Positions 6,258 through 30,944 of a stretch of 51,566 nucleotides of DNA are shown here, piece by piece (position 1 is the first letter of the stretch; every line of letters starts with the position of its first letter). Source of the stretch: a bacterium (lineage in GTDB: Bacteria > RUG730); assembly GCA_031551405.1 (NCBI GenBank), contig JAVBNQ010000009.1:1-51566 (forward strand), given 5' to 3'. The position numbers and the translations under genes were made by a program. The notes below the pieces were generated by a model. That model saw only the letters and a list, made by a program, of their open reading frames with translations, had not been told where the DNA came from and did no database searches.

Positions 6258-6645
6258 TGGGCTGACACCTGATAAAGTTATTTAAGAAGGCTTTTCAAGT
6301 CGAAAAAAGGGATTTTTTATTACTAAGTACGCTATCCACTTTTTTTCTTGCTTTTTACATTGATACATACACAACAACTTTTAACATTTTCCATTTTTAC
6401 GCTAACGACGACTATTTTACTTTTCAGAAAACGTTGTGGCTAGCTTTGTCCATTTTTCTTTGCTCGTCCAAAGCAAAAATGGACGAAAAAGAAAGGACGC
6501 CCCGATGCTCGCGATATGGGAAGAAAATTTTCCAAAAATCTAAATTTCTAAAGATACTCGCAGCTCAAAAAGGGGCTCAAACAAGTTTAGAAATTTTAAA
6601 CGATTTTTAAAAAATTTTCCCCACCTTCACTCACACTGGGGTTTT
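6258..6645 (+). repeat. Dispersed structured intergenic element, copy A (right boundary uncertain, may extend to ~6700)
   Basis: Terminus tgggctgacacctgataaagtt...ttcaagtcgaaaaaa is shared with 24684 and with the reverse complement at 30915. 6535-6596 matches the reverse complement of copy C at 60/62 nt. Hairpin/pseudoknot at 6448-6499, long hairpin at 6500-6641. Confidence 0.85.
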
Positions 6646-6750
6646 AAAAAAATTACGTTGTAATTTTAAAAGCAAAAAAACAAAAGATTAGTTGTCCCCC
6701 TTATTTTTTTACACTCAAAGTTTTTTAGAATTAGAACTAGCCGCGTCATT

Positions 6751-8181
6751 TTACATGTTTTTATTACAGACTTGCTTTTGTTTTTTCCACATAAAAAAAC
6801 AAATTATGCCTGAAATTAAGGCCGCAACAAAAAAATAAAGACTTACATTCCCAAGCATCTCGTTGTATTTCGAAACTTTTTGCCAAGTTAAAAAGAATTT
6901 TACACTAAAAAAAACGTTAAAACCCAAAACAGCAAACCAAACCCAAAGCATCTTTTTATCTCGCGCGACTGCTTTGAAAAACCTGACAACCACAAAAACC
7001 CACAAAAACCACATTAAAAGCTCCAAAAAACTTGCGCTCGTCAAAATATAAAATAATCCAAAAAAAGGGTCTAAAATATAGCGTATTTTTGAATTTAGCT
7101 CATTTCTTTTGTATTCCAGCACTCGCGTTTCTCTTTTTCCAGCCAAAACATACAGAAGCGCATTCTTTTTCGCATCATAATCAAAACTTGAGTCCCTCCA
7201 GCCGGGAATATTCGCGATCGTCCATACATTCGTTTTGTAACACCATCCATGCCAATCCGTAGTTCCGATAAGAGTAATATTTCGTTTTTTGAAATTTCCA
7301 ATTGCGTTTTTCAAATCAACATCTTTGTAATTTTTGTGACCCATGTTTGCAATTTCTGCTGACGAAAAATCTTTTTCCAAGATAGCATTTAGCGTTATCT
7401 TTTCCCACCAAAGCGCGAGGCTAAAACAAACGTTTTTATCTTTCAAATCTAACATGTTTTTTTGGTAATTTGCGCTTGAAAGTTCATCCGGCGAAACCGC
7501 TTCATCAATATTAAAAAACAAATAAAAAACACCACTTGAATCCGGAACTTCCTCACCAAATCCAACAAATATATCCTGCCGTTTTAAGCTCTCTACATTG
7601 GTGAGATTAGGCAAAAACGAGTTGTGTTCCGTTACAAAATAAGCGTCAAAACCATTGCTTTTGTGATAATTCAACGATCTCTTAAAACTGGAAATCGCGT
7701 CCCATGAATAGTATGTGTGACTATGAAAATCAACGGCAATGTCGTCAGGATTTAATTTTTGCAACTTGTTTCCGAGATAAGGGAAAAATACGACATAAAC
7801 AATCAATAACCATAAAATCACGAATAGTTTGATAAAAAAAATCGGAAACGGATTAAATGTAAAAAAAACCTTGAGCTCGTCTTTTTTATAAAATTTTAAA
7901 CCAAAGTAAATCAAAAAATTTATTACGAAAAACCAGGACACATATGATAAGAGTTGCGTCTTCAAGTTTTGCATCTGACAAAAATAACTCGCAACATCCA
8001 AAAATGGCGCAAAAAACGTATGATTAAAATCTTTTTGAATGGAAAAATCAGTCGCAATTTTTCCGTTATTAGTTAAGTCGTAAATTTGCATCGGCTTAGT
8101 CGGGATGAAATATAAAACAAAAAATAAAATTATCAGCCAAAAATAACAATTTTTAAAATTATCAAAAAATTTTATCTTCAT
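6751..8181 (-). CDS. Multi-pass membrane protein with central PHP-family phosphoesterase domain
   Basis: Several hydrophobic segments at both ends; PHP motifs DFHSHTYYSWDA, VTEHN, GEEV, TTDWH. Confidence 0.75.
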   Translation of the reverse strand: MKIKFFDNFKNCYFWLIILFFVLYFIPTKPMQIYDLTNNGKIATDFSIQKDFNHTFFAPFLDVASYFCQMQNLKTQLLSYVSWFFVINFLIYFGLKFYKKDELKVFFTFNPFPIFFIKLFVILWLLIVYVVFFPYLGNKLQKLNPDDIAVDFHSHTYYSWDAISSFKRSLNYHKSNGFDAYFVTEHNSFLPNLTNVESLKRQDIFVGFGEEVPDSSGVFYLFFNIDEAVSPDELSSANYQKNMLDLKDKNVCFSLALWWEKITLNAILEKDFSSAEIANMGHKNYKDVDLKNAIGNFKKRNITLIGTTDWHGWCYKTNVWTIANIPGWRDSSFDYDAKKNALLYVLAGKRETRVLEYKRNELNSKIRYILDPFFGLFYILTSASFLELLMWFLWVFVVVRFFKAVARDKKMLWVWFAVLGFNVFFSVKFFLTWQKVSKYNEMLGNVSLYFFVAALISGIICFFMWKKQKQVCNKNM

Positions 8182-8199
8182 ATTTTCTCATTGAGATTT

Positions 8200-9387
8200 T
8201 TAAATTAAATGTCCCATTCTATTTTTTTTTGTATCGAGATATTTTTTATTTTTCTCATTCGGATTAACTAAAATTGGAATTCTATCGACGATATTTAAAC
8301 CATATCCGTTTAATCCAACTATTTTTTTTGGATTGTTTGTCAACAGTTTTATATTTTTCACGCCGATACATTTTAAAATCTGCGCGCCAATTCCATAGTC
8401 CCGCAAATCTTCCTTAAATCCGAGAGCAATATTCGCTTCAACAGTATCGAGCCCCTCATCCTGCAAATTATACGCTTTAATTTTATTTCCAAGCCCAATT
8501 CCTCGACCTTCCTGGTTCAAATAGACCAAAACGCCACCGTTTGAATTAATCATCTCAAGCGTTTTGTGGAGCTGGTTCCTACAATCACACCTCAACGAAC
8601 CCAGCAAATCTCCGGTAAAGCACGACGAATGCACTCTGACCAAAGTATTTTCCTCTGACTTTATTTCGCCTTTTATGAGAGCAACGTGCTCAGAATTATC
8701 GATTTTGTTTTTAAAAATTTTGATAATAAATTCACCAAATTCCGTTGGTAAATTTGCAGCCGCGACTTCTTCGACTAGCATTTCCTGATTTTGCCGATAT
8801 TTGATGAGATCGACGATGGTGATAATTTTCAAACCGTGTTTTTCGCTAAACTTCAAGAGATCCGGGAGCCGCGCCATCGAACCGTCGTCGTTTAAAATTT
8901 CGCAGATTACGCCGGAAGGTTCGAGGCCACTCAGCCTAGCCAAATCCACACTCGCTTCCGTGTGACCGGCTCTGACGAGAATACCGCCTTTTTTGTAAAT
9001 CAAAGGGAAAATATGCCCGGGCCTAGTAAAATCATCTTTTTTTGAATTTTTCGAAATCAAAGCTTCGACTGTCTTCGCTCTGTCAAAAGCCGAAATCCCG
9101 GTTGTTGTTCCGATTTTATAATCAACGGAAACTGTGAATGCTGTTTGTTTAGCGTCAGTATTTTTCGTTACCATCGGAAAAATTTCAAGCTCCGACAATT
9201 TTTCTTCTTCCATCGACACGCAAACCAAACCGCGACCATACTTCGTCATAAAATTGATAATTTCCGGACTAATCTTACTCGCAGCACAAACCAAATCTCC
9301 CTCGTTTTCGCGGTCCTCGTCATCGATAATTATTACCATTTTACCATTTTTTATGTCTTGAATCGCTTCTGAAATCGTACTTATCAT
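8200..9387 (-). CDS. ribBA: Bifunctional DHBP synthase / GTP cyclohydrolase II
   Basis: DDEDRENEGD, TTGISAFDR, RPGHIFPL, RAGHTEA, VRVHSSCFTGD, RCDC, QEGRGIGL, LTNNPKK. Confidence 0.97.
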   Translation of the reverse strand: MISTISEAIQDIKNGKMVIIIDDEDRENEGDLVCAASKISPEIINFMTKYGRGLVCVSMEEEKLSELEIFPMVTKNTDAKQTAFTVSVDYKIGTTTGISAFDRAKTVEALISKNSKKDDFTRPGHIFPLIYKKGGILVRAGHTEASVDLARLSGLEPSGVICEILNDDGSMARLPDLLKFSEKHGLKIITIVDLIKYRQNQEMLVEEVAAANLPTEFGEFIIKIFKNKIDNSEHVALIKGEIKSEENTLVRVHSSCFTGDLLGSLRCDCRNQLHKTLEMINSNGGVLVYLNQEGRGIGLGNKIKAYNLQDEGLDTVEANIALGFKEDLRDYGIGAQILKCIGVKNIKLLTNNPKKIVGLNGYGLNIVDRIPILVNPNEKNKKYLDTKKNRMGHLI

Positions 9388-9389
9388 TT

Positions 9390-10007
9390 TTATAAAAATC
9401 CCTCATTTTGTAGTAAATTCAAAAAATTTTGATTACCGGAGTTTTTTCGATTCACTAAATTTTTGAGCAAAAAATCCGTCTCAAGATTCAAAAAATCGCC
9501 AATTTTCCTGCACTTTAAATTTGTATTTAACCAGGTCTCCGGAATAACTGAAACGCTAAAATTATTCGAACTTTTTTTAGTAACAGTTAGACTTATTCCG
9601 TCGAGAGCAATCGAGCCTTTTGCGACAATGTTTTCGAGAATATTTTTTTCCGATACTAAAATTTTGAGAATCTTCGCATTATCTTTGCTTTTGATTTCCA
9701 TTAATTTCCCGACGGTTTCAACGTGTCCTTGGACAATATGCCCGCCCAGCCTGGAATCGATTTTGAGCGCACGTTCAAGATTTACAAAATCGCCTGTTTT
9801 CAAACGTTTTAAATTCGTAGACAAAAATGTTGCGGGCATTACGTCAAACTTCAAACAATCACGAGTAATTTGCGTAATTGTCAAGCAAACGCCATTTACA
9901 GCCACGCTATCTCCAATTTTCACATCTTGAAATTTGGATTCAATCGACAAAAAATTCTTGCCTTTTTGTTTGATGCGCCCCAAATCCTCGATCAATCCTG
10001 TAAACAT
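9390..10007 (-). CDS. ribE: Riboflavin synthase (alpha chain)
   Basis: MFTGLIE, GDSVAVNGVCLT, VNLERAL, GGHIVQGHV, KGSIALDGISLTV. Confidence 0.96.
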   Translation of the reverse strand: MFTGLIEDLGRIKQKGKNFLSIESKFQDVKIGDSVAVNGVCLTITQITRDCLKFDVMPATFLSTNLKRLKTGDFVNLERALKIDSRLGGHIVQGHVETVGKLMEIKSKDNAKILKILVSEKNILENIVAKGSIALDGISLTVTKKSSNNFSVSVIPETWLNTNLKCRKIGDFLNLETDFLLKNLVNRKNSGNQNFLNLLQNEGFL

Positions 10008-10022
10008 TTTCCCTCGATTTTT

Positions 10023-10472
10023 TTATTTTGACTGAAATAATTTGAAAAAAAATTCGTTAATTTTCGCAGCGTCTTCTTCCAAGATTCCAATCTCGACTCC
10101 AATCCCATTTTGCTTTAGTTTTAAAACGCCTTTGCCTGCAACTTTTGGATTCGGATCAATATTCGCGATAACGACTTTTTTTATACCGGATTCGATAATT
10201 TTGTCGACGCACGGCGGCGTTTTCCCAAAATGACAGCAAGGCTCTAAATTCACAAAAAGAATCGCACCAAAAAGTTTCGACTGATTTATGACAGAACTCA
10301 AAGCCTCGATCTCAGCGTGCGGTTTCCCGTAGCCGGAGTGAAAACCGTAGCCAATTATTTCTGAATTTTGAGAGACGATCACAGCTCCGACGAGAGGATT
10401 TGGATACGTCAAATCTTTGGCTTTTACAGCCAAGTCCAACGCCATCTGCATATAAAATTCATAATTTGTCAC
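10023..10472 (-). CDS. ribD: RibD pyrimidine deaminase domain only (no reductase domain)
   Basis: PNPLVGAVIV, HAE, LEPCCHFGKTPPC, DPNPKVAGKG; 149 aa, ending where the reductase domain would normally begin. Confidence 0.88.
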   Translation of the reverse strand: MTNYEFYMQMALDLAVKAKDLTYPNPLVGAVIVSQNSEIIGYGFHSGYGKPHAEIEALSSVINQSKLFGAILFVNLEPCCHFGKTPPCVDKIIESGIKKVVIANIDPNPKVAGKGVLKLKQNGIGVEIGILEEDAAKINEFFFKLFQSK

Positions 10473-10526
10473 CGGCTAACCCTTTTCCTAAAACTCGTTA
10501 AATTTAAATCTCGTATAAAGCTATTC

Positions 10527-13064
10527 TCAGTTAATCACAATTTTTTTTACGATTTTAGAACTTCCCATTTTAAAAATCAAATAATAAAGTCCTTTTTCCA
10601 AAGTTTTATTTTGATCATTCTTTCCGTTCCAATCTAACTCATACGAACCACGAGTTTTGTATCCATCAACTAATTTTTTCAGGATTTTTCCGTCGCCGCC
10701 AGAAATAAAAATTTTCAAATCTCCGTCAGTTTTTACATTGAAAACGATTTTTGAAGTCCCGCCTTTTTTGAACGGATTCGGGTAATTATGAATATCGTCT
10801 TTTGAAACATTCAAATTGTAATTTACAAGTTTTATATCTACAGAATTATCTTTTCCATTTTCTAAAATATACGAAATTTCTTGGGATTGAAAACCATTTT
10901 TCTCAACTGTAATTTTAATTTTTTGCCCGGTTGCAGCAGCCAAATTCATCTCGAAAACCCCGACAGAATTTGTAATTCCCGTCACTACTTGTGTCGAGCT
11001 AAAAATCTTCAAATTTGCTCCGTCGACAATATTTCCAGTCTGATCTTTTACCGAACATCTAAGCGTTCCAAACCCGGATATTACTTCGCTGGCAACATTA
11101 AAAAATCTATCAAATTGACTCGAATTTTTACTTTTGTAAACATAATCTTGAATCCCATCGCCATCAACATCAAAAAGCCAAACTTCCGAAACAAAATCTT
11201 CGTCCAAAATCCAAACATGCGTCGGAAAAATTTGTTGTTGCGTTTGATTCAAGCTAAAAAAAACAAGATTATTTTTTGCCTTGATAAGCCTCGAAATCGG
11301 CGCAAAATTATCGATTAAAGAACCGTTGGTAAAAAATTCAGCATACCCGTCAGAATCAATGTCTTTTTGGTAATCCGAAACCGTCATTTCTACAGCTTGA
11401 GAAATGCTTGTACTCCACCCGAAAGTAGAATTTTGGGCCTGAATATAACGAGTGTAAGACTTCCCAACCTCGAGGTTTGTCTCCAAATAAAACGTAGTAT
11501 TTGCCGGAAGCTGCGATATGAAATTCATATTTTCGTCATAAAAATTAATTTTTGTTGCTCTGGACGTGTTATTTTGCCAAGTCCAGACAATCGACGAGCG
11601 CGTTTTTTCGCTACTCCTAAAATTCGTGATATTTTTCAAACCATTACTTTTCACAGAAGTTGTCGTTAAAAAGTCAGAGTTTTGAAATCCGTCGTAAGTT
11701 CTAAAATTCACGAAATAATCCGTCTCTACCTCCGTCACTAAAAACTCAAAATTCTCCGCTAAACCTTTAATCCCGGGAGTTATCGAATTTGAGATGAGAG
11801 CGACTAAGCTCCAAGTTTTCGTGTCAGGATAATTCGCCGGATTTTGGGTCGAAATAAAAATTTCGTAACTCGCTATTTTTTCTTGACCCGGCTCGTCTTC
11901 TACCGCATTCCAATTCAACAAAATTTTCATATTAGAAGGGTCAGGCGAACTCACATTAAAGTTTTGCACATTTGGAGGCGGGATTGTGTCGATTTTTACA
12001 GTATATTGCGATGTCGCAAAATTGTTCAAAGTATCTTTGAGCAAAATGACGATTTTATTCGCTTCAAACGACGACACGAAATTCAACGTATTCGTCGATA
12101 AAATCAGAGCGTTCGCAGACTTTGAGCCATCTTGCGTCTGCGCTCCAAAATCCAGTCGTTCCCAATTATCCCAACTTACGCCTTGATCTCGACTAATTTT
12201 GTAAGCAGCGCTAAAGTAATTCGCGAGAATTTGTTCGTCAGAATATTTTGTGGAGCTAATTCTGAGCTCGTCAAAATTTCCCAAAAAACTGTCATTTGAA
12301 CTAAGACCTGTTCCGCAAACATTAAAATCATTTGAATTTGCTATCACTTTTCCATCGGAAGCCACAGAGTTATCGAGTTTTCCGTTTATAAAAATTTTCT
12401 TGGAATTCCCGTCAAAATTACAAGATACATAATACCATTCATTCGAGAGCCAAGTCCTTTTGGTTGATTTCAAAACCTTTTCACTATTCCCGTCGTAATT
12501 AATCCACTCTAAACTTCCGTCTGTTCCTAGCCGTAAACTCAAAATATGTTTCCCGATATCTAGGCCCTTGTAAACAAAATATTGCGGGGCACTTAAAGTT
12601 TGATTTATATTGGCTAAAGGCTTGAACCAAAACTCAATCGCGCCGGTTTGCAATTCTGCTCGCAAAATATTCGGATTTGTCAAATAATAATTTTCGTTCG
12701 AGATTATTTCCAGAGCCTTGCTAAAATTAGGATTTGAATTAGCTACTACGGAAATCCCGCCATTTTTAAGAACCAGTTGTGCACTATTTTTTGCGTCTTC
12801 GAAAAATTCATTTGTTAGAATTAAATTACTTTTTTCGTCGAAATGCCATAAAGCCAAGACATCAGCATTAACAGTAAGCGCGTGCGGCTTCGTCGCAATT
12901 CCATTTATAGAATCGATTACCTCAAAATTTACAACCGGGTTTTGCTTGTTCGTTTTTTTTGTCAAATCTTTGCCGTCGATCTCAACATTCGTCACAGTCA
13001 ACGCTTCGAGCGAAAATTGTAAACTTAAGGCAAAAATTGAGAAAAATAAAAAATTTTTAAGCAT
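10527..13064 (-). CDS. Secreted multidomain protein: LamG/ConA-like domain, Fn3-like repeats, carboxypeptidase-regulatory-like Ig domain, C-terminal FlgD-Ig/T9SS-like tail
   Basis: Signal peptide MLKNFLFFSIFALSLQFSLEA; ALWHFDE, IEFWFKP, IFINGKL, FLGNFDELRIS (LamG); DTIPPPNV...LNWNA (Fn3); HNYPNPF...WNGKNDQNKTLEKGLYYL tail. Start moved to ATG at 13064. Confidence 0.75.
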   Translation of the reverse strand: MLKNFLFFSIFALSLQFSLEALTVTNVEIDGKDLTKKTNKQNPVVNFEVIDSINGIATKPHALTVNADVLALWHFDEKSNLILTNEFFEDAKNSAQLVLKNGGISVVANSNPNFSKALEIISNENYYLTNPNILRAELQTGAIEFWFKPLANINQTLSAPQYFVYKGLDIGKHILSLRLGTDGSLEWINYDGNSEKVLKSTKRTWLSNEWYYVSCNFDGNSKKIFINGKLDNSVASDGKVIANSNDFNVCGTGLSSNDSFLGNFDELRISSTKYSDEQILANYFSAAYKISRDQGVSWDNWERLDFGAQTQDGSKSANALILSTNTLNFVSSFEANKIVILLKDTLNNFATSQYTVKIDTIPPPNVQNFNVSSPDPSNMKILLNWNAVEDEPGQEKIASYEIFISTQNPANYPDTKTWSLVALISNSITPGIKGLAENFEFLVTEVETDYFVNFRTYDGFQNSDFLTTTSVKSNGLKNITNFRSSEKTRSSIVWTWQNNTSRATKINFYDENMNFISQLPANTTFYLETNLEVGKSYTRYIQAQNSTFGWSTSISQAVEMTVSDYQKDIDSDGYAEFFTNGSLIDNFAPISRLIKAKNNLVFFSLNQTQQQIFPTHVWILDEDFVSEVWLFDVDGDGIQDYVYKSKNSSQFDRFFNVASEVISGFGTLRCSVKDQTGNIVDGANLKIFSSTQVVTGITNSVGVFEMNLAAATGQKIKITVEKNGFQSQEISYILENGKDNSVDIKLVNYNLNVSKDDIHNYPNPFKKGGTSKIVFNVKTDGDLKIFISGGDGKILKKLVDGYKTRGSYELDWNGKNDQNKTLEKGLYYLIFKMGSSKIVKKIVIN

Positions 13065-13497
13065 ATTTTGTTTTTTCCAAAATTTTCTCGATGATGTTTT
13101 TACACTTTTTTGATTCAAATTTTATGGTTTTTATACTTCCGGTCGAATTTTTTTCTTCTCGCGTTAGATAAAAATCAAATTTCAACATTTCAAAAAGTCG
13201 CGTAAAATCGTCGTTTTCAAGTTGAATTATATAATCAATCATCTCCAATCCTTCCAAAATTTGCAATCTGTCGTTAAATGATAAAAGCGGAAAATCTAGA
13301 TTTTTTTTGCTAAATTTTATAAATTCGTCAGAGTAAAGTCCGACGATTGTAACATCAGCAAATTTTTTCGTTTCTCTCAAATACCGAATGTCGCAAACAT
13401 TCAAAACGTCAAAATCTCCCGTCGCCAAAATTGTTTTTTTATAATTTTCCGCTTTCAAAATATTTTGTAATTCTTCGATAGTTTTAAATTTTTTCAT
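13057..13497 (-). CDS. Cytidylyltransferase-like (RfaE/HldE domain II) protein with degenerate HxGH motif
   Basis: ATGDFDVLNVCDIRYL (canonical NGCFDxLHxGHxRYL), IVGLYSDE, DRLQILEGLEMIDYI. Confidence 0.7.
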   Translation of the reverse strand: MKKFKTIEELQNILKAENYKKTILATGDFDVLNVCDIRYLRETKKFADVTIVGLYSDEFIKFSKKNLDFPLLSFNDRLQILEGLEMIDYIIQLENDDFTRLFEMLKFDFYLTREEKNSTGSIKTIKFESKKCKNIIEKILEKTKYA

Positions 13498-13504
13498 TTT
13501 TTTC

Positions 13505-15894: not shown

Positions 15895-16544
15895 TGATTA
15901 TTTTCTGCTGCAACAAATCCTTTCTGGCGAAGTAGACAGCTATCACAAACGCCACACGGCTTCTCGCCTCCATTATAACATGACCAAGTTTTTTCAAAAG
16001 GAACGTTCAATTTTTTTCCGAGTAAAATAATTTCTTTTTTACTCAAATTAAGAAGTGGAGCTTCTATTTTGAGACGATTTTTTGATAATCCTTGCTTCGT
16101 ACCTTTGTCGATGGCCATCTGAAAAGCGTCAATGAATTCAGGCCTACAATCCGGGTAACCGCTATAGTCAATGCTATTCGCTCCGATCAAAATCACATTC
16201 GCGCCCAATACTTCTGCAAAAGACGTCGCAATACTGAGGAATATTAAATTTCGAGCAGGAACATAAGTTGAAGGGATGGAACTTTCGTCTATTTTTCTAT
16301 TGATTGGAATTTCACCGGAATTGCTTAATAACGAACTGCCTTTCCACGAGAAATCTAATTTTACGATTTTGTAAGGTATGTTGCAAAGTGCAGCAATATT
16401 TTCAGCGCAATGTATTTCTTTGATGTGCCTCTGATCATAATCGAAAATTAGAGCAGTGACTTCATAATTTTCGTTTATAGCCCAATAAAGCGTTGTGGCA
16501 GAGTCAAGTCCGCCAGATAATAAAACTACAGCTTTTCTAGTCAT
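15891..16544 (-). CDS. queC: 7-cyano-7-deazaguanine synthase
   Basis: LLSGGLDS, YDQRH, TYVPARN, DYSGYPDCRPEF, TWSCY, CGVCDSC. Confidence 0.97.
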   Translation of the reverse strand: MTRKAVVLLSGGLDSATTLYWAINENYEVTALIFDYDQRHIKEIHCAENIAALCNIPYKIVKLDFSWKGSSLLSNSGEIPINRKIDESSIPSTYVPARNLIFLSIATSFAEVLGANVILIGANSIDYSGYPDCRPEFIDAFQMAIDKGTKQGLSKNRLKIEAPLLNLSKKEIILLGKKLNVPFEKTWSCYNGGEKPCGVCDSCLLRQKGFVAAENNQ

Positions 16545-16559
16545 TCTTTTGGATTAGAA

Positions 16560-17474: not shown

Positions 17475-17499
17475 AAACTCCCTCTTAAGAAAAAGATTT

Positions 17500-17572: not shown

Positions 17573-17582
17573 ATAAAAACTT

Positions 17583-17636: not shown

Positions 17637-17655
17637 GAAATTTTGGGGGTATAAT

Positions 17656-21523: not shown

Positions 21524-21532
21524 GGAGAAAAA

Positions 21533-22234
21533 ATGGGTTTGGAAAAAATAATTGTAGCTCTCGACGTTGACACGCGAGAAGAAGCCTTGAATATCGTGAA
21601 AAAACTTGGAAAACGAATTGAATTTTACAAAATCGGATCAGTTTTATTCACGAAATATGGCGCAGATTTTGTTAAAGAATTGAAAAATCTGGGGAAAAAA
21701 GTATTCCTCGACTTAAAATATCACGATATACCAAACACAGTTTCTAACGCGATAAAAAATGCTATTGATCTAAAAGTCGACATGATTACTTTGCACACGA
21801 TTGGCGGTTTTGAAATGATGCGAGAAGCGGTTTTGACAGTCGATAAAAATGGTAAAGCTGGAAACAAACCGATTCTACTTGGCGTAACGGTTTTGACGAG
21901 CATGAAAACGAAAGATTTGCGAGAAATCGGCCTCAATCGAACAGTCGAGAGCCAGGTAAAAAAACTGGCGAAACTCGCTACATTCGCAGGACTCAAAGGA
22001 TTTGTCTGTTCAGCAAAAGAAATAAAACTTGTTCGGAAAATCACTGGGAAGAACGGTATAATCGTGGTTCCAGGAATCAGATTAGATGGCGACGAAGCCG
22101 GTGATCAAAAACGCGTAGCAACTCCGACAGAAGCTATTAAGAACGGCGCATCGTATCTTGTTATGGGCCGAACTATTTTGAGCGCGAAAAACATCGACGA
22201 AACTTTGGACAAAATTGAGGCAGAAATTTCATAA
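21533..22234 (+). CDS. pyrF: Orotidine-5'-phosphate decarboxylase
   Basis: IIVALD, FLDLKYHDIPNTV, VTVLTS, VPGIR, DQKRVATP, VMGR. Confidence 0.97.
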   Translation: MGLEKIIVALDVDTREEALNIVKKLGKRIEFYKIGSVLFTKYGADFVKELKNLGKKVFLDLKYHDIPNTVSNAIKNAIDLKVDMITLHTIGGFEMMREAVLTVDKNGKAGNKPILLGVTVLTSMKTKDLREIGLNRTVESQVKKLAKLATFAGLKGFVCSAKEIKLVRKITGKNGIIVVPGIRLDGDEAGDQKRVATPTEAIKNGASYLVMGRTILSAKNIDETLDKIEAEIS

Positions 22235-22235
22235 A

Positions 22236-23033
22236 TTATTTTATCGCATTATCTTTGCTTGGAAATTTTTTATTTTTTACGTCTTGAGAATATTTTTTTG
22301 CAACTTTTCGAAATATCTCACCAACATTTTCATAAATCTTGACGAACTTTTTCGGTTTATCAAAATTCATATTGACAATATCTTCAAAAACCAAAATTTG
22401 TCCGTCGCAAAACCTTCCGGATCCAATTCCAATTGTAGGAATTTCTAAAGCTTTCGTGATTTTTTTTGCAAATTCTTCCGGGATACATTCGAGCAAAATC
22501 GCGAAAACGCCTAAATCCTCAAGTAATTTCGCATCATCCATCAATTTTTTTTGTTCTTTTTCGCCTCTCGCCTGGACTTTATAGGAACCCATAACATTTA
22601 TCGACTGCGGCGTCAATCCCAAATGCCCCATTACAGGGATTCCGGAGTTAATTATCGCTTCAATTTTGTCGGCTACTTCGGCGCCGCCCTCGAGTTTCAC
22701 TGCATTGACTTTTCCGTATTTTATTATATTGCCGGCATTCATGACTGCTGTTTCAGTCGACGCTTGATATGACATAAACGGCATATCTCCAACGAGAAGG
22801 CTGCTCTTATTGCCGCGCTCGACGATCTGAGCATGATAAATAATATCTTCAACTTCGACCGGCAAAGTATTTTCGTAGCCTAGGACAACATTTCCAAGCG
22901 AATCACCTACCAAAATTATATCGAGATTCGCTTCGTCGAAAATTTTAGCGTTAAAATACGAATAACACGTGAGAGCAGAAATTTTTTCCGTGTTTTTCAT
23001 GAATTTTATGTCATTAATATTTTTTCTTCGCAT
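22236..23033 (-). CDS. panB: 3-methyl-2-oxobutanoate hydroxymethyltransferase
   Basis: ILVGDSLG, GDMPFMSY, VKLEGG, GHLGLTPQS, TIGIGSG, DGQILV. Confidence 0.97.
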   Translation of the reverse strand: MRRKNINDIKFMKNTEKISALTCYSYFNAKIFDEANLDIILVGDSLGNVVLGYENTLPVEVEDIIYHAQIVERGNKSSLLVGDMPFMSYQASTETAVMNAGNIIKYGKVNAVKLEGGAEVADKIEAIINSGIPVMGHLGLTPQSINVMGSYKVQARGEKEQKKLMDDAKLLEDLGVFAILLECIPEEFAKKITKALEIPTIGIGSGRFCDGQILVFEDIVNMNFDKPKKFVKIYENVGEIFRKVAKKYSQDVKNKKFPSKDNAIK

Positions 23034-23075
23034 TTTTGTTTCCTTTTTTCAAATTTCAAATTTTTTCACAAAAAT

Positions 23076-23318
23076 CTATTCTTCCTTAAAATTCTCGTCA
23101 AAATCTTGGAGCTCTTTTTCACCATTTTTTGAATCCACCAAAATCTGAATTTTTTTCTTGGCTTCATCCAATTTTTTTGAGCAGAAATTGCAGAGTTCAA
23201 AACCTTGCTCAAAAAGTTTTATAGCTTCGTCCAGCTCGATTTCGTTATTTTCCAGTTTCTCGACGATTATTTCTATTTGTTTTATGGCTGCTTCGAATTT
23301 CAAGGTTTTGTTATTCAT
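23076..23318 (-). CDS. xseB: Exodeoxyribonuclease VII small subunit
   Basis: FEAAIKQIEIIVEKLE...LDEAIKLFEQG...C...L..A; adjacent to xseA. Confidence 0.93.
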   Translation of the reverse strand: MNNKTLKFEAAIKQIEIIVEKLENNEIELDEAIKLFEQGFELCNFCSKKLDEAKKKIQILVDSKNGEKELQDFDENFKEE

Positions 23319-24654
23319 AAATTTTGTTTTTTCCTAATCTCAAAACTTGGCATAAAATTTCCAAATTTTCCGTTAATATTTGAATTTTATCATTTTTTTT
23401 AAGATTTTGCGTATTTAAAATTTTTTTGTTTTCATCAAAAAGAACAGCATAGCCTCGTGAAATAATTTTTTTCGGAGACAAGTTCGCGAGCTTTCCTTCG
23501 ATAAGTCCGAGTTTGTACGCTTTTTTATCCAAAATTTTTGCGTAAATTCTTTCAATGTTTTCCCTAAAAAAATCTAAAACTTGAATTTTCTCGTCAATAA
23601 AAAGCAGAGGATTTTGCAAAAATTTACTGATTTTTAAAAACTCGAAATCCGCAATCTTTGCTTCGACAAGAAATTTCACTTCACTAAAAATTTTATGTTT
23701 AAAAAAATCGATTTTTGCTTTTAGTTCGCGTTTATCAGAAATAACGAGTTCTGCAGCTGCCGACGGAGCTGGCGCACGCAAATCAGACACAAAATCCGCA
23801 ATCGTGAAATCAACTTCGTGCCCGACGCAAGATATTATTGGAATTTCTGATTCAAAAATGCTTCGTGCAACTAATTCCTCATTAAAAGCCCACAAATCCT
23901 CGATGCTTCCTCCGCCTCGTCCAAGCAAAATCACGTCGACATCGCGTAAATTTTCGTTAAAATATTTCAAAGCCTCGCAAATCTCAAATTTTGCAGTCTC
24001 ACCCTGAACGCGAACAGGAAAAATTATCGCATTAATGTTCGAATATCTACGATTCAAAACTGCCAAAATATCTCGGATAGCTGCTCCGGTTGGCGAAGTG
24101 ATAATTCCGATTTTCTGCGGTAGAATCGGGAGTTGTTTTTTGTGCGTCCGGTCGAACAGGCCTTCTTTCAAAAGTTTTTCTTTTAGTTGTTCAAACGCGA
24201 GTTGTAGCGCGCCGATCCCTTTCGGTTCCATATAAAACGCGACGAGTTGATAAATTCCGGCTTTAACGAAGGAAGAAACGTCTCCTTTCAGCAAAACTTT
24301 TGTGCCGTCTTTTGGCGCGAATTTCAATAATTTGTACAAATTGTTGAACATGACGGCTTTTATCTGCGCGCCCCCGTCTTTCAACGTGAAATAAAAATGC
24401 CCCGATGACTGTAATTTGCCGTTTGAGATTTCGCCTTCGACCCAAATCTCTTGAAAATTTTTATCGAGTAATTCCTTGATTTTTTGGCTGATTTCGCTTA
24501 CTGAAAAAATTTGTCTAAAAGCTTTTTGTTGACTAGAATTTTCGTGATTTTTCGATTTTTGCGTTTTTTTTGATTTATTTTCATCTGTAAACATATCGAA
24601 AAATAATTCATTTTCGTTGTAAGAAATTTTCGTTTTAGAATTTTTTTTAGTCAT
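23311..24654 (-). CDS. xseA: Exodeoxyribonuclease VII large subunit
   Basis: WVEGEISN, SGHFYFTLKD, ITSPTGAAIRD, RGGGSIEDLWAFNEE, VGHEVD; start ATG 24654 or TTG 24669. Confidence 0.96.
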   Translation of the reverse strand: MTKKNSKTKISYNENELFFDMFTDENKSKKTQKSKNHENSSQQKAFRQIFSVSEISQKIKELLDKNFQEIWVEGEISNGKLQSSGHFYFTLKDGGAQIKAVMFNNLYKLLKFAPKDGTKVLLKGDVSSFVKAGIYQLVAFYMEPKGIGALQLAFEQLKEKLLKEGLFDRTHKKQLPILPQKIGIITSPTGAAIRDILAVLNRRYSNINAIIFPVRVQGETAKFEICEALKYFNENLRDVDVILLGRGGGSIEDLWAFNEELVARSIFESEIPIISCVGHEVDFTIADFVSDLRAPAPSAAAELVISDKRELKAKIDFFKHKIFSEVKFLVEAKIADFEFLKISKFLQNPLLFIDEKIQVLDFFRENIERIYAKILDKKAYKLGLIEGKLANLSPKKIISRGYAVLFDENKKILNTQNLKKNDKIQILTENLEILCQVLRLGKNKIYE

Positions 24655-24683
24655 AATTTTTATTTTCAAAACGCATAAATTTT

Positions 24684-25039
24684 GAGACTGACACCTAATA
24701 AAGTTCTATTCAAGTCGAAAAAAAATTTTTCGAGCCGGAAAACGAGAGAATTTGGTTTTTATTTTTGCGATTGAAAAAGAAAAAAGCTTTTCAATTTCCG
24801 TCTAAATGCTAAAGACAGTAATCTTGTTTTGACCAAAAGTTTATCAAATTTATTTGTTACTTTTCTTTGCTTGTGACCTGCGGTCAGCATGCTTGGCAGA
24901 GACAAAAAGTTTAAAGTAAAATCTCCATTCGAAGCCACGAAAAAAACAAAAAGCGAGAAATTTTTGCGAAGCGGCAGCTATTGCCTGTCGTGTGAGGACA
25001 TCGTCTACAAAGCTCAGCAAATTAAATATTGTCAGCCCA
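24684..25039 (+). mobile_element. Dispersed element copy B, MITE-like (imperfect TIR, possible 8-bp TSD)
   Basis: Left end GAGACTGACA; right end reverse complement TGGGCTGACA, identical to the copy A left end; flanked on both sides by taaatttt; first ~190 nt homologous to copy C. Confidence 0.65.
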
Positions 25040-25931
25040 TAAATTTTTTAAATACGTCTTTTTTTATCACGAACAACAAAATATTACAAATTCCCAAAAT
25101 CAAAATTCCACAAACGCCTTTGACGCCAATAATTATGTCATTTGCGCCAACGACAAAAAATGTCGCCAAAAAATACGTCGCATTCAAAATTCCCAAAAAA
25201 AGTGAGACATAAAGCAAAGAATCCGTTTTTTCCCGGATAAAAAACAAAATCGGCGTGATAAGGATATGCCAACTTAAAATCAAAAAAGCATTGATGAGAT
25301 GAGAATTTTTGCCGAAAAATCCAAGAAAAACGAACGGAATATAAAACATTCCCCACCAAAATCCGACGTAAATTCCGGCCTTAAAAATACCGATTTTTTT
25401 AAACTCATCATAAAGAAGTCCGACCCAACCAATCATTTCCAAAAAATAAAAAATCGCGCCGCTCGTCATTCCGACTATAATTCCAACGAAAAGATTTAAA
25501 GCCCAAAAATATTCCACACTAAAATCACTCGCGAATTTTTTGAAAATGCTTAACTTTGCTTCGTCAAAAAGCAGTGAATATTTTGCTAACAAAACTTCCA
25601 ATTGCCTCGAAAAATAAATTCCCGGCAAAAAAATATCAAACAAAAATACGAGAACTTCAATTAAAAAAACAGAATAAATTACCAGCAAAATTTTTGAGTC
25701 TAAACAAATTTTTAAAAAATATTTTTCCCAAAAAAGTTCGCGATAAATCAAACTTTTGACTATAAAAACTGAGTTGAAAGATATTAATGCAAAAATAAAA
25801 TTTGCGAAAAATGGATGCGAAACTAAAAATGGACTAAGATTCTTGAAATATAAAAAAAACGCGAACAAATATCCAAAAAATAACGTAAAAAATATAAACA
25901 AAAAACTTTTGTTTTTTTGATGAACCAGCAT
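25032..25931 (-). CDS. CPBP/Abi (CAAX protease)-like membrane protein, catalytic motifs degenerate
   Basis: Highly hydrophobic; LEMIGWVGLLYDEF (cf. EExGWRG), GFWWGMFYIP (cf. WGxWHxP), REKTDSLL, LGILN (cf. HxxxN). Confidence 0.6.
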   Translation of the reverse strand: MLVHQKNKSFLFIFFTLFFGYLFAFFLYFKNLSPFLVSHPFFANFIFALISFNSVFIVKSLIYRELFWEKYFLKICLDSKILLVIYSVFLIEVLVFLFDIFLPGIYFSRQLEVLLAKYSLLFDEAKLSIFKKFASDFSVEYFWALNLFVGIIVGMTSGAIFYFLEMIGWVGLLYDEFKKIGIFKAGIYVGFWWGMFYIPFVFLGFFGKNSHLINAFLILSWHILITPILFFIREKTDSLLYVSLFLGILNATYFLATFFVVGANDIIIGVKGVCGILILGICNILLFVIKKDVFKKFMG

Positions 25932-25932
25932 T

Positions 25933-27057
25933 TTATAAAAAATCAGTTGACAAAATCACCAAGTTGTCTCGATGAATCGCTACTTTTTTGAAATTTTGTC
26001 CAAATAAAATTTTTAGCTCGCTCGTATTTTTCCCAATCATTTTTGTAAGCTCGGCTGATCCAAACTCAACCATACCTTTTGCGATAATTTTATCAGTCGA
26101 CGCCTTGACATCAACTACGTCGCCTTCCTTAAAATCTCCAAAAATCTCCGTGATTCCGGCTGTTAAAAGACTTTTTCCTTTTTCTAAAACCGCGAGTTCT
26201 GCGCCTTTGTCGATGGAAATCGAGCCTTTGATTTTTGCGCTGAAAACCAACCAACTTTGCTTTTGATTAAAAAATTTCTCCGCCGGCAAAAATTTTGTTC
26301 CAATTTCGTAATTTTGAAATAAATTTTTTAAGACTGCAGGTTTTTTCCCGTTAGCGATAAAAACTTCGACGCCGGAAAAACACGCGATTTGTGCAGCTTT
26401 AAATTTCGTCACCATTCCACCGGTTCCTCGTTTAGTCCCGGATTTCGACGAAAATTCTATGTCAAGATTTTTGAAATTCTGAATTTCGATCTTTTTGATG
26501 AGCTTAGCGTCTTTGTTTTCTCTAGGATTCGAGGTAAAAACACCGTCGACATCCGTCAAAATCACAAGCTCATTTGCTTTCATTTTTGCAGCAACAAGAG
26601 CTGACAGCGTGTCATTGTCACCAAATTTTATCTCAGAGATTGAAACAACGTCATTCTCGTTTACTATAGGGATTATGCCTTTTTTTAACAATGTAAAAAC
26701 TGTGTTTTTTATATTCAAATATCTCTCGCGATCATCGATTTGCGCTTTTGTCAAAAGAACTTGACCGACGATTCTGTTGTATTTTGCAAAAGATTTGTTG
26801 TAATGATTCATAAGCTCGACTTGACCTATGCTCGCTAACGCCTGTTTTTCCGAGATGTCTTTTGGTTTTACGCTCAAATTCAAAAGCCCAACGCCAGTCG
26901 CTATTGCCCCGGAGGTCACGATAATTATCTCATCGCCTTGACTCAAAACGTTTTTGTAAATTATCGATGCAATTTTGTCTAAATATTTTTTGTTCAGCCT
27001 ACCGTCGTCGTTCGTTAATAAGCTGCTTCCTAATTTCAAAACGTATAGTTTTTTCAT
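25933..27057 (-). CDS. proB: Glutamate 5-kinase with PUA domain
   Basis: VLKLGSSLL, VTSGAI, PIVNEND, FGDNDTLSA, GTGGMVTK, SLLTAGI, IHRDNL. Confidence 0.97.
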   Translation of the reverse strand: MKKLYVLKLGSSLLTNDDGRLNKKYLDKIASIIYKNVLSQGDEIIIVTSGAIATGVGLLNLSVKPKDISEKQALASIGQVELMNHYNKSFAKYNRIVGQVLLTKAQIDDRERYLNIKNTVFTLLKKGIIPIVNENDVVSISEIKFGDNDTLSALVAAKMKANELVILTDVDGVFTSNPRENKDAKLIKKIEIQNFKNLDIEFSSKSGTKRGTGGMVTKFKAAQIACFSGVEVFIANGKKPAVLKNLFQNYEIGTKFLPAEKFFNQKQSWLVFSAKIKGSISIDKGAELAVLEKGKSLLTAGITEIFGDFKEGDVVDVKASTDKIIAKGMVEFGSAELTKMIGKNTSELKILFGQNFKKVAIHRDNLVILSTDFL

Positions 27058-27707
27058 GAATTATTTTTCCTACAAATTTTTTCACGAGCATTTGCCTGCA
27101 TTTTTTCATAATCTTTTTCAGACAGTCCTAAACCAGTCAAAATTGAAAGAATTTGCGTTTTAGACAAAATGTTCTCCGGTAAATGCACGTCATTGCAAAA
27201 AACCAATTTTGTGCCAATTTTATTCGCAAGACCAGCAACATGCGCATTTGTTTGGGTGTGCCAATTTCTCGACGTGATTTCAAGACAAACATCATTTTCT
27301 TTTGCAAGTTTTACCTCATCTTCCGTGATTTCTCCTGGATGCGCCAAAACATCAACTCGCGCCTCGATAGCTTTCAAATTAGTGAGTTTTGGAACATTTT
27401 CAGCAACAGTCTCGCCGTGAACTACAACGATTTCAGCGCCATAATCTCTACATTTTTTTACCAGATCTTTTAAATCTTCCGGAGGAACATACGTCAATTC
27501 TACTCCCGGCAAAACTTGTATTTCGTAACCTTCTTCGAGTGAGGGTTTCACGGTTTTGGCTGCATCGATAATCTCTTTATAATTTGAGTAATCAGCGTGA
27601 TCAGTAATCGCGATTGTAGTATATCCGGTCAGCTTCGCTCTATAAACAAGTTCGGAAATACTCAAAACTCCGTCGCTCATGAAAGTATGCGCGTGTAATT
27701 CTATCAT
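27054..27707 (-). CDS. PHP-family phosphoesterase (histidinol-phosphate phosphatase-like)
   Basis: ELHAHTFMSDG, AITDH, GVELTYVPP, VVHGET, LAHPG, NDVH. Confidence 0.85.
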   Translation of the reverse strand: MIELHAHTFMSDGVLSISELVYRAKLTGYTTIAITDHADYSNYKEIIDAAKTVKPSLEEGYEIQVLPGVELTYVPPEDLKDLVKKCRDYGAEIVVVHGETVAENVPKLTNLKAIEARVDVLAHPGEITEDEVKLAKENDVCLEITSRNWHTQTNAHVAGLANKIGTKLVFCNDVHLPENILSKTQILSILTGLGLSEKDYEKMQANAREKICRKNNS

Positions 27708-27729
27708 TTTTTTCTCCGATTATTTTCCG

Positions 27730-28470
27730 TTAGTACAAGATTCCTAAATTTTCTTTTTTCGTCCAGCCTTTTAACTTTTTGTCTTCTATAAAAATATTCA
27801 CCCAATCGTTATTTTCATCCTCAATCACAACTTTTTTCCCCTCAGGCAATAAAAACAAAGCCTGGCTGCTTTGATTTGGACTTGAATAGACAGGAATTTC
27901 ACTCGAAATGCAAACGCCGATTTTGAATTTATACCCGCTTTCATAAACAAAAAAAATCCAGACGCTTGTGAGAATTAATAAAATCAACGAATAAGTTCTC
28001 ATCGAAATTAAAAGTTTCCGTCTCCAAAAAAGTAGTAGACTGCAGCTTAAAAATAAAATGGCATAAAAAAACGTAAAACCGTAAAAAAGTTCGTTCAATG
28101 AAAAAAAATTCGTTATATTTTCGATAAATTCAGATTTTTGATTTGTCTTGAGAAGAAGTAATTTTCTATTGTATAAAATATCGCTGTCTCGTGGAGAAAA
28201 CTTGTACGCTTTTTCGCTGTAGAGCACGGCAAAACCGATTTTATTTAATTTGTAATACGTATTGCTCAAGTTGAAAAACAATTCTTTTGAGACTAAACCT
28301 TGCGCTTCTAAATCCTGATAAATCGAGAGAGATTTTGCATAATCCCCCCTGAAATAAGCAGTATTTGCAGATTGAAAATAAGAATTTATCGAAATTTTTT
28401 TCTGAGCTGCAAAACAAAAATTAATGCATAAAAACAAAATTATAAAAAATAAACAATTTTTTTTAGACAT
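27730..28470 (-). CDS. BatE-like TPR + transmembrane + SH3 protein
   Basis: Signal peptide; TPR (FQSANTAYFRGDY, LFFNLSNTYYK, EKA...PRDSDILYN); two TM helices; SH3-like LPEGKKV...W...GW; directly downstream of batD-like gene. Confidence 0.8.
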   Translation of the reverse strand: MSKKNCLFFIILFLCINFCFAAQKKISINSYFQSANTAYFRGDYAKSLSIYQDLEAQGLVSKELFFNLSNTYYKLNKIGFAVLYSEKAYKFSPRDSDILYNRKLLLLKTNQKSEFIENITNFFSLNELFYGFTFFYAILFLSCSLLLFWRRKLLISMRTYSLILLILTSVWIFFVYESGYKFKIGVCISSEIPVYSSPNQSSQALFLLPEGKKVVIEDENNDWVNIFIEDKKLKGWTKKENLGILY

Positions 28471-28482
28471 AATTTTGAATTT

Positions 28483-30315
28483 TCACTCCAGATTTCGTAT
28501 GCTATTTTTCAAAGTCTGTACCAAATTTTCACGATCTTTTGCTTCGAGTTTTTTGTTCGCAAACTTTATAAACTCCAATTCCATCCAAATTCTCTCATAA
28601 TTTTCAATTTTATTTTGGCTGATTTTTTTAGTTTGTAAAATCTGCTTTAATTCGCTTAAAGAGAAAATCTTTTGTTTTATCTCAAATTTATCTCGCAAAA
28701 ACTCAACAAAAATAGAATTTAATTCTATGATAAAATTTTCGGTTGCAGAATTTTTCTCGAGTTTTTCTAATTTTTGTAGAGCTAGAGAATCTGCTCTTTT
28801 TAACGAAATTTGAACTTTGTTTTTTGAGATGTAATTTATGTAAAATTTTAATAAAAGCAAAAGCAAAAATATCGACGGAAAAAACAAAAGCAAAATAAGA
28901 AAAATCGTGGACTTATAAAACAAAAGTTGTTGATATTTGAGATTTTCTTTCGTCTTTATAAATCGGATATCGCTGTTAATTATTTTGATGTCATTGTTCA
29001 AAAAATCTTGATTTTGCAATTGATTTTGCGCTGAAACTTGAAATGGATCTGCATTTTTTGCGACTTTTATAACTCCAAAATTTTTTTTATTTACCACGTA
29101 TTTTTTAGTTTGATAATTAAAAAAAGAAAACTCGAGTTCCGGCATTTTCAAATCTCCAGGCACGAGTGGAACTAAAACAATTTTAAAATTTTTCGAACCT
29201 TTCAGCCCGTAATTATCTCTGGAAATATTATTTTTTGAAACAGTATCGTACTTCTTAAAATTCACAAAGTCAGATAAACTAGGTTCGTTTATGGTATTAA
29301 TATTTCCTCGGCCAGAGATTGTTACGTCGAGTGTAATTGTTTCGCCTGTTTTATAATCAGATTCAGGAAGAATTTTCACGTCCATCTTATAATCGCCAAC
29401 TGCGCCTTTAAAACTGTCAGGCTTACCGTCGGCAGGCAAAGGTTTGACCGTAATGTCTATAGGGTCTGTCTCAAGATTCATTCTCCGTGCTCTCGAACCA
29501 AAAGAAATTCCCCAGAAATCATCGGACTCAATAGGTTCTTCGACTACACACTCAAGGCGAGTTGAGCCGATTTGTTGCGCACCTGGCAATGTTGGATACA
29601 AAATTGTCTTTTTGTCGAGCATATAATACAATGTTTCGTTATAATTTACTTTTTGTGCTTCGTTTCGTTCAGGAGCATCTTCTTTCCAAAAACTGTTTGT
29701 CTCCGGCGCCTTATAAATCGGCTGCTCTAGAAATGCAACGCGGCTGTAAACTTTAAAAGTCAAAATAATCGGTTCATTGATAAAAACTGATTTTTTATTG
29801 ATTTCGTTTTCGACAAAAATGTTTTTATTACCACGTTTAGAAATTTTATTTTGGGACTGTGAATTAGAAGGCGGTGTAGCAAAATTTTTGCTGGATTGTG
29901 AAATATTTTGTTTTTGCGGGGTTTCTGGATTTTGCCTTGCACTAAAACTTACGCTATTCGTACGATAAGTTTTGCCTTGATAATCTATCTCAATTTCCGG
30001 AATAGAAAAATTACCTTCTCTGCTCGGAACGATTATGTAATTGAACAAAAAATTCGACGACGTTTGCCCATTAACAACACTAATTCTAGTGCTAGTGCCG
30101 GATCCATACGTAATCACTCCATCAATGGCAGGTATGTTTGGTGCAGAAAGTCTCGTGGTGCCACTTACTTTTATGGTGTACATTAAACGTGAGCCTACTG
30201 CAATTTCTGTGTCACTTATTGAAGCCTCTACGAGAATGTCGTCGCAAAATAAAATCGATAAATTCAAAAAGATTGAGGAGATTAAAAATAAAATTTTAAG
30301 AGTTTTTTTAAACAT
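28483..30315 (-). CDS. BatD family protein
   Basis: Signal peptide; STRISVVNG, PSREGNFSIP, VKPLP...FKGAVG, ISGRGN, FSFFN; C-terminal TM helix. Start moved to ATG 30315. Confidence 0.85.
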   Translation of the reverse strand: MFKKTLKILFLISSIFLNLSILFCDDILVEASISDTEIAVGSRLMYTIKVSGTTRLSAPNIPAIDGVITYGSGTSTRISVVNGQTSSNFLFNYIIVPSREGNFSIPEIEIDYQGKTYRTNSVSFSARQNPETPQKQNISQSSKNFATPPSNSQSQNKISKRGNKNIFVENEINKKSVFINEPIILTFKVYSRVAFLEQPIYKAPETNSFWKEDAPERNEAQKVNYNETLYYMLDKKTILYPTLPGAQQIGSTRLECVVEEPIESDDFWGISFGSRARRMNLETDPIDITVKPLPADGKPDSFKGAVGDYKMDVKILPESDYKTGETITLDVTISGRGNINTINEPSLSDFVNFKKYDTVSKNNISRDNYGLKGSKNFKIVLVPLVPGDLKMPELEFSFFNYQTKKYVVNKKNFGVIKVAKNADPFQVSAQNQLQNQDFLNNDIKIINSDIRFIKTKENLKYQQLLFYKSTIFLILLLFFPSIFLLLLLLKFYINYISKNKVQISLKRADSLALQKLEKLEKNSATENFIIELNSIFVEFLRDKFEIKQKIFSLSELKQILQTKKISQNKIENYERIWMELEFIKFANKKLEAKDRENLVQTLKNSIRNLE

Positions 30316-30505
30316 AAATTTTTTGTTAGATGTTAAAGTTAATAAAAGTTTATTTATCAATTTTTGATGATAAAAAAAATTTTTCGTTTTTTCTCTAAAA
30401 ATTGTGTAATTTTTTAAAGTGCCCTTTTATGAGCAAAGAGAGACAAAAAGCGTTAAAATAGCTTTTGATTTTTCTACATTTAAAAATTGATTTGGCAATT
30501 TTTCG

Positions 30506-30915
30506 AAAACCCTTCGTGAGTGAAAGTGAGTAAAATTTTCAAAAAATCGTTTGAAATTTCTAAACTTGTTTGAGCCCCTTTTTGGGCTGCGAGTCTCTTT
30601 AGAAATTTAGATTTTAGAAAATTTTTCCCCTATCTCTGAGGTACAGCAGACTAGCCTTTTTTGTTTATTTTTTGGGCAATGCCAAAAAAGAAAATAAAGA
30701 TTTGTCCAAACTTTTATTTTTCGAAATCCGCAGGCTTTGCCGAAAATGAAAATTTTTAGCTTTATTTTTTTCTCAGAATAACTCAAAGAAAAAAACAAAA
30801 CCAAAATCCCTCGTTTTTTGCTCAAAAATTCGTTTTTTCGTCTCAAGTCCACACGTTTTTTTGCTTCGAAAAATTTTTTGTCGACTTGAAGAGAACTTTA
30901 TTAGGTCTCAGCCTC
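30506..30915 (-). repeat. Dispersed structured intergenic element, copy C (inverted relative to A and B)
   Basis: Reverse complement begins gaggctgagacctaataaagttctcttcaagtcgacaaaaaa; stem-loop/pseudoknot module at 30652-30697; long-hairpin core at 30506-30634 nearly identical to copy A. Confidence 0.85.
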
Positions 30916-30944
30916 AAAAATATTGTTTCAAAACAATCGTTTAT

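Follow-up and report, generated by a model that had tools for sequence, protein, structure and literature searches.

Several families of small intergenic repeats known from bacteria offer comparisons for the elements described here. BIME and NIME are mosaic intergenic elements, in ERIC the base pairing is maintained through compensatory changes, BOX follows a fixed A-B(n)-C plan, and the insertion sequences (IS) of the IS1016 group end in GGGgctg. According to excerpts of one report (PMC10969869), the BOX, RUP and SPRITE repeats "bunch together", one inserting into another, and in excerpts of another (PMC12561309) the inverted repeats of ISApl4, a member of the IS1016 subgroup, are GGGGCTGTACTAGA and its direct repeats are A/T-rich and 8 bp long, with direct repeats of 7–9 bp in other IS1016 elements. 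We have analysed a stretch of 51,566 nucleotides (the window), which is the entire contig C7 of a genome of 1,207,757 bp (G000; 14 contigs, ca. 35% G+C, rated 100% complete), and in which three intergenic elements, A, B and C, share a terminus. The sequencing runs holding this DNA are labelled invertebrate gut metagenome. The three elements are probably non-autonomous DNA transposon derivatives, that is, miniature transposable elements with inverted repeats (MITEs), with an IS1016-like frame and mosaic interiors.

Element B (24684–25038, 355 bp), located between an unassigned open reading frame (ORF) and xseA, has both a left-end module (T1) and a right-end module (T1') and is an intact miniature transposon. 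The terminus shared by the three elements is one arm of a 15–17-nt terminal inverted repeat, GRGGCTGACACCTAATA, which T1' carries inverted. B and its flanks are composed as follows:

24675–24683, no strand: left copy of the 9-bp target-site duplication, ATAAATTTT
24684–24760, + strand: module T1, with the inverted repeat GAGACTGACACCTAATA, then TTCAAGTCGAAAAAA and AAAACGAGAGAATTTGG
24761–24872, + strand: module Bmid1, containing the ATTGAAAA/TTTTCAAT hairpin as well as one half (5') of a T-rich hairpin
24873–24955, + strand: rare segment Bmid2, with repeat coverage near zero (4 genome matches)
24956–25038, − strand: right-end module T1', reverse complement GGGCTGACA-ATATTTAATTTGCTGAGCTTTGTAGACGATG
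25039–25047, no strand: right copy of the target-site duplication, ATAAATTTT, identical to the left one

Among random intergenic 9-mers of this genome a 9/9 match has a p of ca. 1e-4 (1.3e-3 for at least 8/9 and 8.5e-3 for at least 7/9). The unassigned gene at 25032–25931 (299 aa) now ends KKFMG*, its last codon and TGA lying inside the T1' of B. Read on in the same frame, the left duplicate gives KFMRFENKNYD*, and the TAA restored in this way (24647–24649) sits just past the in-frame ATG of xseA at 24654. Without B and one duplicate the two genes overlap by 8 nt, an overlap of the usual operon type, as in coupled genes. We infer from this arrangement that the empty site can be reconstructed and that removal of B would restore the overlap junction. 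The inverted repeats, the exact duplication and the reconstructable empty site bear out the view, put forward in the original prediction from the sequence of the window, that these are non-autonomous mobile elements. As to its local effect, the insertion split an overlapping gene pair upstream of xseA, separating the two genes and truncating the partner, whose last eight codons were swapped (RFENKNYD to G).

The common terminus of A, B and C, also claimed there, held up in a pattern search with CTGAnACCTrATAAAGTT, which gave three matches in the window (at most 2 mismatches) and none in 100 dinucleotide shuffles:

6262–6279, + strand: terminus of A
24688–24705, + strand: terminus of B
30894–30911, − strand: terminus of C

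Element A (443 bp) is intergenic, with an HhH-GPD glycosylase gene on one side and an unassigned ORF on the other:

6258–6310, + strand: left-end module T1, starting TGGGCTGACACCTGATA
6343–6490, + strand: module S, with a T-rich hairpin at 6448–6484
6484–6650, + strand: module V, a long imperfect palindrome (the "core"), arm subtype iii
6651–6700, + strand: tail and degenerate right end (read by eye)

The right end of A, ATTAGTTGTC-CCCC at 6687–6700, agrees by eye with 12/15 positions of the T1' terminus ATTAGGTGTCAGCCC, and 7/9 positions agree between the 9-mers on either side, TGATTTTTA and TTATTTTTT. Element C is flanked by a 77-aa ORF and by a BatD-like gene (28483–30360):

30866–30915, − strand: left-end module T1, starting GAGGCTGAGACCTAATA
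30790–30860, − strand: module R, a T2-like variant ending AAAAAACGAGGGATTTTGGTTTT
30660–30769, − strand: module U, with a T-run/A-run hairpin at 30668–30690
30500–30665, − strand: module V, 5' arm of subtype i and 3' arm of subtype iii
30380–30499, − strand: tail modules, in common with C1:43728–43802 and C6:5234–5506 (contig:position)

No T1' end is present in C, which we therefore take to be truncated before the BatD-like gene. The mosaic relationship among the three was confirmed by BLAST: A (6513–6686) and C (30634–30462) share the downstream core at 82.5% identity over 177 nt, while B and C share a 54-nt terminus (92.6% identical) and the 56-nt "aaaacgag(a/g)g" spacer (80.4%). The T-rich stem-loop that had been described for each copy is complete in A (6448–6484) and in C (30668–30690), but B has its 5' half only (ca. 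24855–24872). Stop-free frames of 70–131 codons are common in these A-rich repeats (e.g., window 6260–6631, + strand). Between copies there are indels whose lengths are not multiples of three and which break the frame, and we thus read the repeats as non-coding.

The description of a three-copy family is correct within the window; genome-wide, the modules group into 51 loci that together make up ca. 22.9 kb (1.9%) of the 1.21-Mb genome. When the genome was compared with itself by BLAST, 2,523 non-self matches were obtained, and single-linkage clustering merged everything into one cluster of 157 segments, which is why we used twelve modules seeded by hand, each searched genome-wide with nhmmer:

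V: 35 matches, 27 near full length
T2: 29 matches
U: 27 matches
W: 23 matches
X: 22 matches
R: 21 matches
S: 20 matches
T1: 12 matches, 7 at 80% or more of model length
T1': 8 matches
Bmid1: 8 matches
P: 7 matches
Bmid2: 4 matches

Further genomic copies, whose absence together with that of empty sites had been said to speak against mobility, are thus present (4 matches for Bmid2, 7–35 for each of the other modules). The terminus pattern itself matches 8 times genome-wide (at most 2 mismatches) vs. once for a control pattern. The modules follow a recurring order, S-U-V-X-W-T2/R-P-S-U, mostly in one orientation per locus, with X-W-T2/R kept together in most loci and Bmid1 coming after T2 in loci other than B. 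They are mostly co-oriented with flanking genes (W 17/21, V 20/25), a bias that is inseparable from replication or gene-strand bias. Like the pneumococcal BOX, RUP and SPRITE repeats, as portrayed in the excerpts cited above (PMC10969869), they are modular, non-coding, hairpin-forming, intergenic and clustered. They differ from them in showing no sequence likeness, in having longer modules (50–165 nt), and in their recurring module order and the terminal-inverted-repeat frame around some clusters.

Twelve of the loci touch contig ends (12/28 ends), so that the repeats break the assembly and limit what can be assembled of this lineage. Two other stretches of the window, 212–344 and 51426–51554, are shared over 129–133 bp with the ends of C1, C6, C10 and C12; these look like assembly-graph overlaps and not like members of the repeat family. 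At ca. 132.25 kb of C13 an X/W junction has a run of ca. 16 G where other copies read AAAAAATTAGGCGGGGG, a tract that may be a homopolymer prone to slippage or may be an artefact of the assembly. Three other candidates were set aside. Contig C8, with repeats at both ends, is not a mobile unit, its translations reading as glyS, glyQ and a UvrD-like helicase; C4:1–2034 is a coding repeat; and the GIY-YIG and DUF559 small-nuclease cassettes carry no module or V end.

By eye we counted 9 T1 ends and ca. 10 inverted T1' ends that share GGCTGACACCTAATA. With at most one mismatch this 15-mer matches 8 times in the genome vs. 0 for the reversed control, and once, in G002, among the six other species genomes of the same GTDB "phylum" in the searched collection (G001 and G002 being sister genera). 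A start of GGGGCTG or GAGGCTG is found in 4/9 T1 ends and in 2 of the 7 T1' ends listed, the remaining ends being variable. Where boundaries were set by eye, the flanking 9-mers agree at 8/9 for C2:137911–138339 and at 7/9 both for A and for C6:25706–26910. The family has the features by which MITEs are recognized: terminal inverted repeats, a target-site duplication and small, non-coding, multi-copy elements in A/T-rich intergenic DNA. Some framed composites reach 1.2 kb, above the usual MITE size, and no autonomous relative sharing these ends was found in G000. Beyond this genome, G002 has one T1-like end, AGCTGACGCCTAATAAAAC. A metagenome scan with the T1 pattern gave 24 stretches, all chance matches lacking the CTGACACC prefix, and two scans of viral contigs gave no real match.

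Which transposase might have moved the frame was examined through seven transposase and reverse-transcriptase families. In G000 there were no matches to Y1_Tnp (PF01797), the TnpB zinc ribbon, RVT_1, DDE_Tnp_1 (PF01609), DUF772 (PF05598) or DDE_Tnp_IS1595 (PF12762), while control genomes did match them (6/14 for PF01797). The sole match was an integrase-core (rve) remnant with broken frames at C4:37281–37424 (− strand), adjoining a tRNA gene; short and lacking T1 ends, it was rejected as a source. In line with the earlier statement that no transposase accompanies the elements, none of the tested families is intact anywhere in the assembled genome. The proposed resemblance of the ends to IS1182 was not supported: the domains tested for it (DUF772 and DDE_Tnp_1) are without matches in G000, and the GGGGCTG start with a 9-bp A/T-rich duplication fits instead the IS1016 group, in which the start and the A/T-rich direct repeats of 7–9 bp are alike, as is the insertion of ISApl4 mostly in non-coding DNA (excerpts of PMC12561309). 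The elements here differ from that group in that G000 has no transposase, in their longer inverted repeat, which diverges after base 7, and in holding unrelated repeat modules that amount to as much as 1.2 kb.

Among the relatives, PF12762 has four matches in G002, three of them with stops, and one in G004. Two of the G002 copies (L224:26–786 and L225:111–873, ca. 760 bp, 88% identical, frame broken by stops) end in GGGGCTGGACTAATTTTCC, a GGGGCTGGACTAAT-type end, ca. 100 nt past the 3' end of the pseudogene, and this end agrees with the ISApl4 repeat at 11/14 positions. Inverted-repeat scans of the IS1595 loci returned A/T-rich noise only.

On this basis we can outline how the elements may have arisen. 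T1 and the inverted T1' would supply the frame, both carrying GRGGCTGACACCTAATA, and a DDE transposase from the IS1016 group of the IS1595 family, acting in trans, most likely mobilised it. The enzyme would have cut at the GGGGCTG ends and inserted them with a 9-bp stagger into A/T-rich DNA, leaving at B the ATAAATTTT duplication. The interiors may have come to differ by accretion of small palindromic repeats (the T-run/A-run hairpin with V, and the X-W-T2 unit), and the ca. 50 mosaic clusters are likely to have been built by insertion of one repeat inside another, by tandem duplication and by recombination among copies. As the assembled genome no longer encodes the transposase, the copies have probably become immobile relics, unless they depend on a transposase copy missing from the assembly. 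A 1.2-Mb genome from an invertebrate gut with ca. 2% of gene-less repeats and no matching transposase would suggest a past burst of IS followed by loss of the enzyme.

A number of observations weigh against this scenario. A perfect duplication is found at B alone, the flanks of C1:43128–43873 agree at only 5/9, and C is without a right end. The likeness to IS1016 comes down to the first seven bases, the TAAT and duplication length. The true terminus of the two G002 copies is not certain, as they are also alike over ca. 25 nt outside the GGGGCTG, and no inverted partner was seen at their other end. No IS1595-family or other intact transposase was found in G000, nor a cognate autonomous element with these ends. 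T2 and R resemble T1 variants that have decayed, yet they are always inside arrays and behind constant upstream sequence, which simple end-to-end insertion does not explain. Finally, no empty-site allele or polymorphism was observed. The relatives are too distant for empty sites, because ProB is only 53–58% identical to that of G000 (58% in G001, 53% in G003) and synteny at B is not kept: the orthologue of the gene at 25032–25931 does not adjoin xseA in G001–G003, and a scan of genome contigs for XseA found distant phyla only, with no gain in synteny.

Some of these points would suit a history in which most copies never transposed but multiplied among intergenic regions through duplication of segments, unequal crossing-over and gene conversion, the duplication at B being a coincidence. 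A cluster at C13:131.7–132.0 kb does contain three tandem U units of ca. 120 nt, minisatellite-like, T2-P-S-U blocks are repeated within one locus, and a single perfect duplication was found. Nevertheless, we consider such an origin very unlikely, given 51 dispersed loci with unrelated flanks, the sharp T1 and T1' boundaries, and the combination at B of a 9/9 duplication (with the above p per comparison) and an in-frame restored gene end.

The one-orientation arrays raise another possibility, in which they would resemble REP/BIME or IS200/IS605 arrays, moved as single-stranded hairpins by an HUH (Y1) enzyme and inserted beside a AAAAAACG junction. The co-linear order S-U-V-X-W-T2/R-P, the hairpin-rich modules and the orientation bias with genes and GC skew are as would be expected. 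Homology in T2/R stops exactly after AAAAAACG, and AAAAACG is ca. 3.5 times denser in the repeat loci (88 occurrences in 28.9 kb) than genome-wide (1111). However, G000 has no Y1_Tnp or TnpB zinc-ribbon match where control genomes do, the orientation bias is inseparable from gene orientation, and the ends of B are inverted and flanked by a duplication of 9 bp. HUH transposition of the IS200/IS605 kind is not known to make either of these, and we regard this alternative as highly improbable. What REP/BIME and the NIME of Neisseria have in common with the present family are conserved motifs in intergenic mosaics, many copies and hairpins; the differences are that here there is no RAYT/Y1 transposase and no short GC-rich REP unit, and that there are inverted ends with a duplication.

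Besides the transposon frame, the part of the family that calls for attention is V, an imperfect palindrome of 140–165 nt. Its ends are inverted (GTCTGC...GCAGAC), its arms fall into three subtypes, and its centre, ACTCGCC-hairpin-GGGCTCAAAC, is conserved. V usually comes after the T-run/A-run hairpin, which is the T-rich stem-loop of the original prediction. The two together give 12 matches in G001 and 11 in G002 at ca. 80% identity, often at contig ends; in C, the hairpin and the start of V are the part common to the sister genera at this identity. We aligned 29 copies of V, namely 22 of the 27 from G000, all three complete ones from G001 and all four from G002, leaving out the last five G000 copies listed, which include those with unusual arms. 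Over the 14 inner pairs, 96.8% of cells are paired vs. 89.9% in shuffled alignments, and 28 cells are changed on both sides vs. 8.6, neither value being reached in any of 500 shuffles. One pair occurs as five pair types, and slid controls are 36–65% paired. RNAalifold, run on the V alignment, returned no structure. The stems of V are kept by compensatory changes, with the proviso that related paralogues can beat shuffles without constraint. The apex is occupied by six different perfect hairpins, and the V of G001 retains the arms but has unpaired sequence in place of the centre. A hairpin element with compensatory changes across genera provides a modest lead on why miniature transposons stay folded.

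V can be compared with the whole-hairpin MITEs ERIC and Correia, which it resembles in its palindrome, inverted ends, 27 full copies and compensatory pairing. It differs in that no TA or other duplication is definable for V, and no promoter or IHF-type site was found here, in what is a weak test.

These properties have led us to weigh whether the conserved parts (the T-run/A-run hairpin with V, perhaps also X-W-T2) are not debris but selected structured RNA or single-stranded DNA, as RNA forming part of neighbouring transcripts and acting as stabiliser, processing site or regulator. The pairing of V beats 500/500 shuffles, its apical hairpin persists in six different self-complementary sequences, and the hairpin and V remain at ca. 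80% identity between genera in which identity in ProB is as low as 58%. W adds two hairpins that each exist in two compensatory versions, TCGAAAAACC/GGTTTTTCGA vs. TAGGAAAACC/GGTTTTCCTA for the first and CTCGCAA/TTGCGAG vs. CTCGCAG/CTGCGAG for the second, and V and W mostly point the same way as their flanking genes (20/25 and 17/21).

Other results speak against a function as RNA. The claim that the elements are structured stands in part: against dinucleotide shuffles the A/C core, V, folds somewhat better (z of −2.4 and −1.9 on the two strands), but whole B does not (z −0.01), and W is weak as well (−1.3 forward, −1.6 reverse). An apparent preference of W RNA for folding on the forward strand (22/22 copies) was dropped because shuffles do likewise and the effect is compositional. 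Wobble cells in V number 8 G-U vs. 9 C-A, so that no strand is favoured. The unpaired apex with arms kept in G001 fits ends bound by a transposase, X-W was not found in the relatives and is confined to G000, and the caveat on related paralogues applies again. No excess of sigma-70-like promoters or terminators was seen around B and C, again a weak test. The Rfam check for a described family gave no match beyond tRNAs: in the window, at gathering thresholds, only three tRNAs were found, and 20 repeat loci searched at E<=1 gave one tRNA and two overlapping matches, the others lying far below gathering. Of the words sampled from window 22000–31500, a fraction of 0.91 is present in one metatranscriptome run (X2), a signal that is not localisable to the elements. 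On balance, we find a selected structured-RNA or single-stranded-DNA role unlikely for these parts. Similarly doubtful, in our judgement, is a narrower proposal in which the T-run/A-run hairpin with V is a domesticated element, or one autonomous by other means, whose pairing is selected in at least three diverged genera; we would give slim chances to its serving as a structured RNA or single-stranded-DNA signal, or to its being mobilised by an enzyme outside the tested families.

We therefore keep to MITEs with an IS1016-like frame as the probable explanation of A, B and C. The suggestion that they represent an undescribed system has to be given up, since miniature transposons that cluster and nest, like intergenic repeats of mosaic build, are already known; the family is a fresh example of familiar miniature transposons and not a new kind of system. 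In a limited literature search we found no description of these repeats in Elusimicrobiota, a provisional label for this bacterium, nor of any MITE derived from IS1016. Elsewhere in the window, a gene at 33155–37657 encodes a protein of 1500 aa with a GH81 C-terminal domain and a sub-threshold match to Por_Secre_tail (22.3 bits vs. a cut-off of 27).

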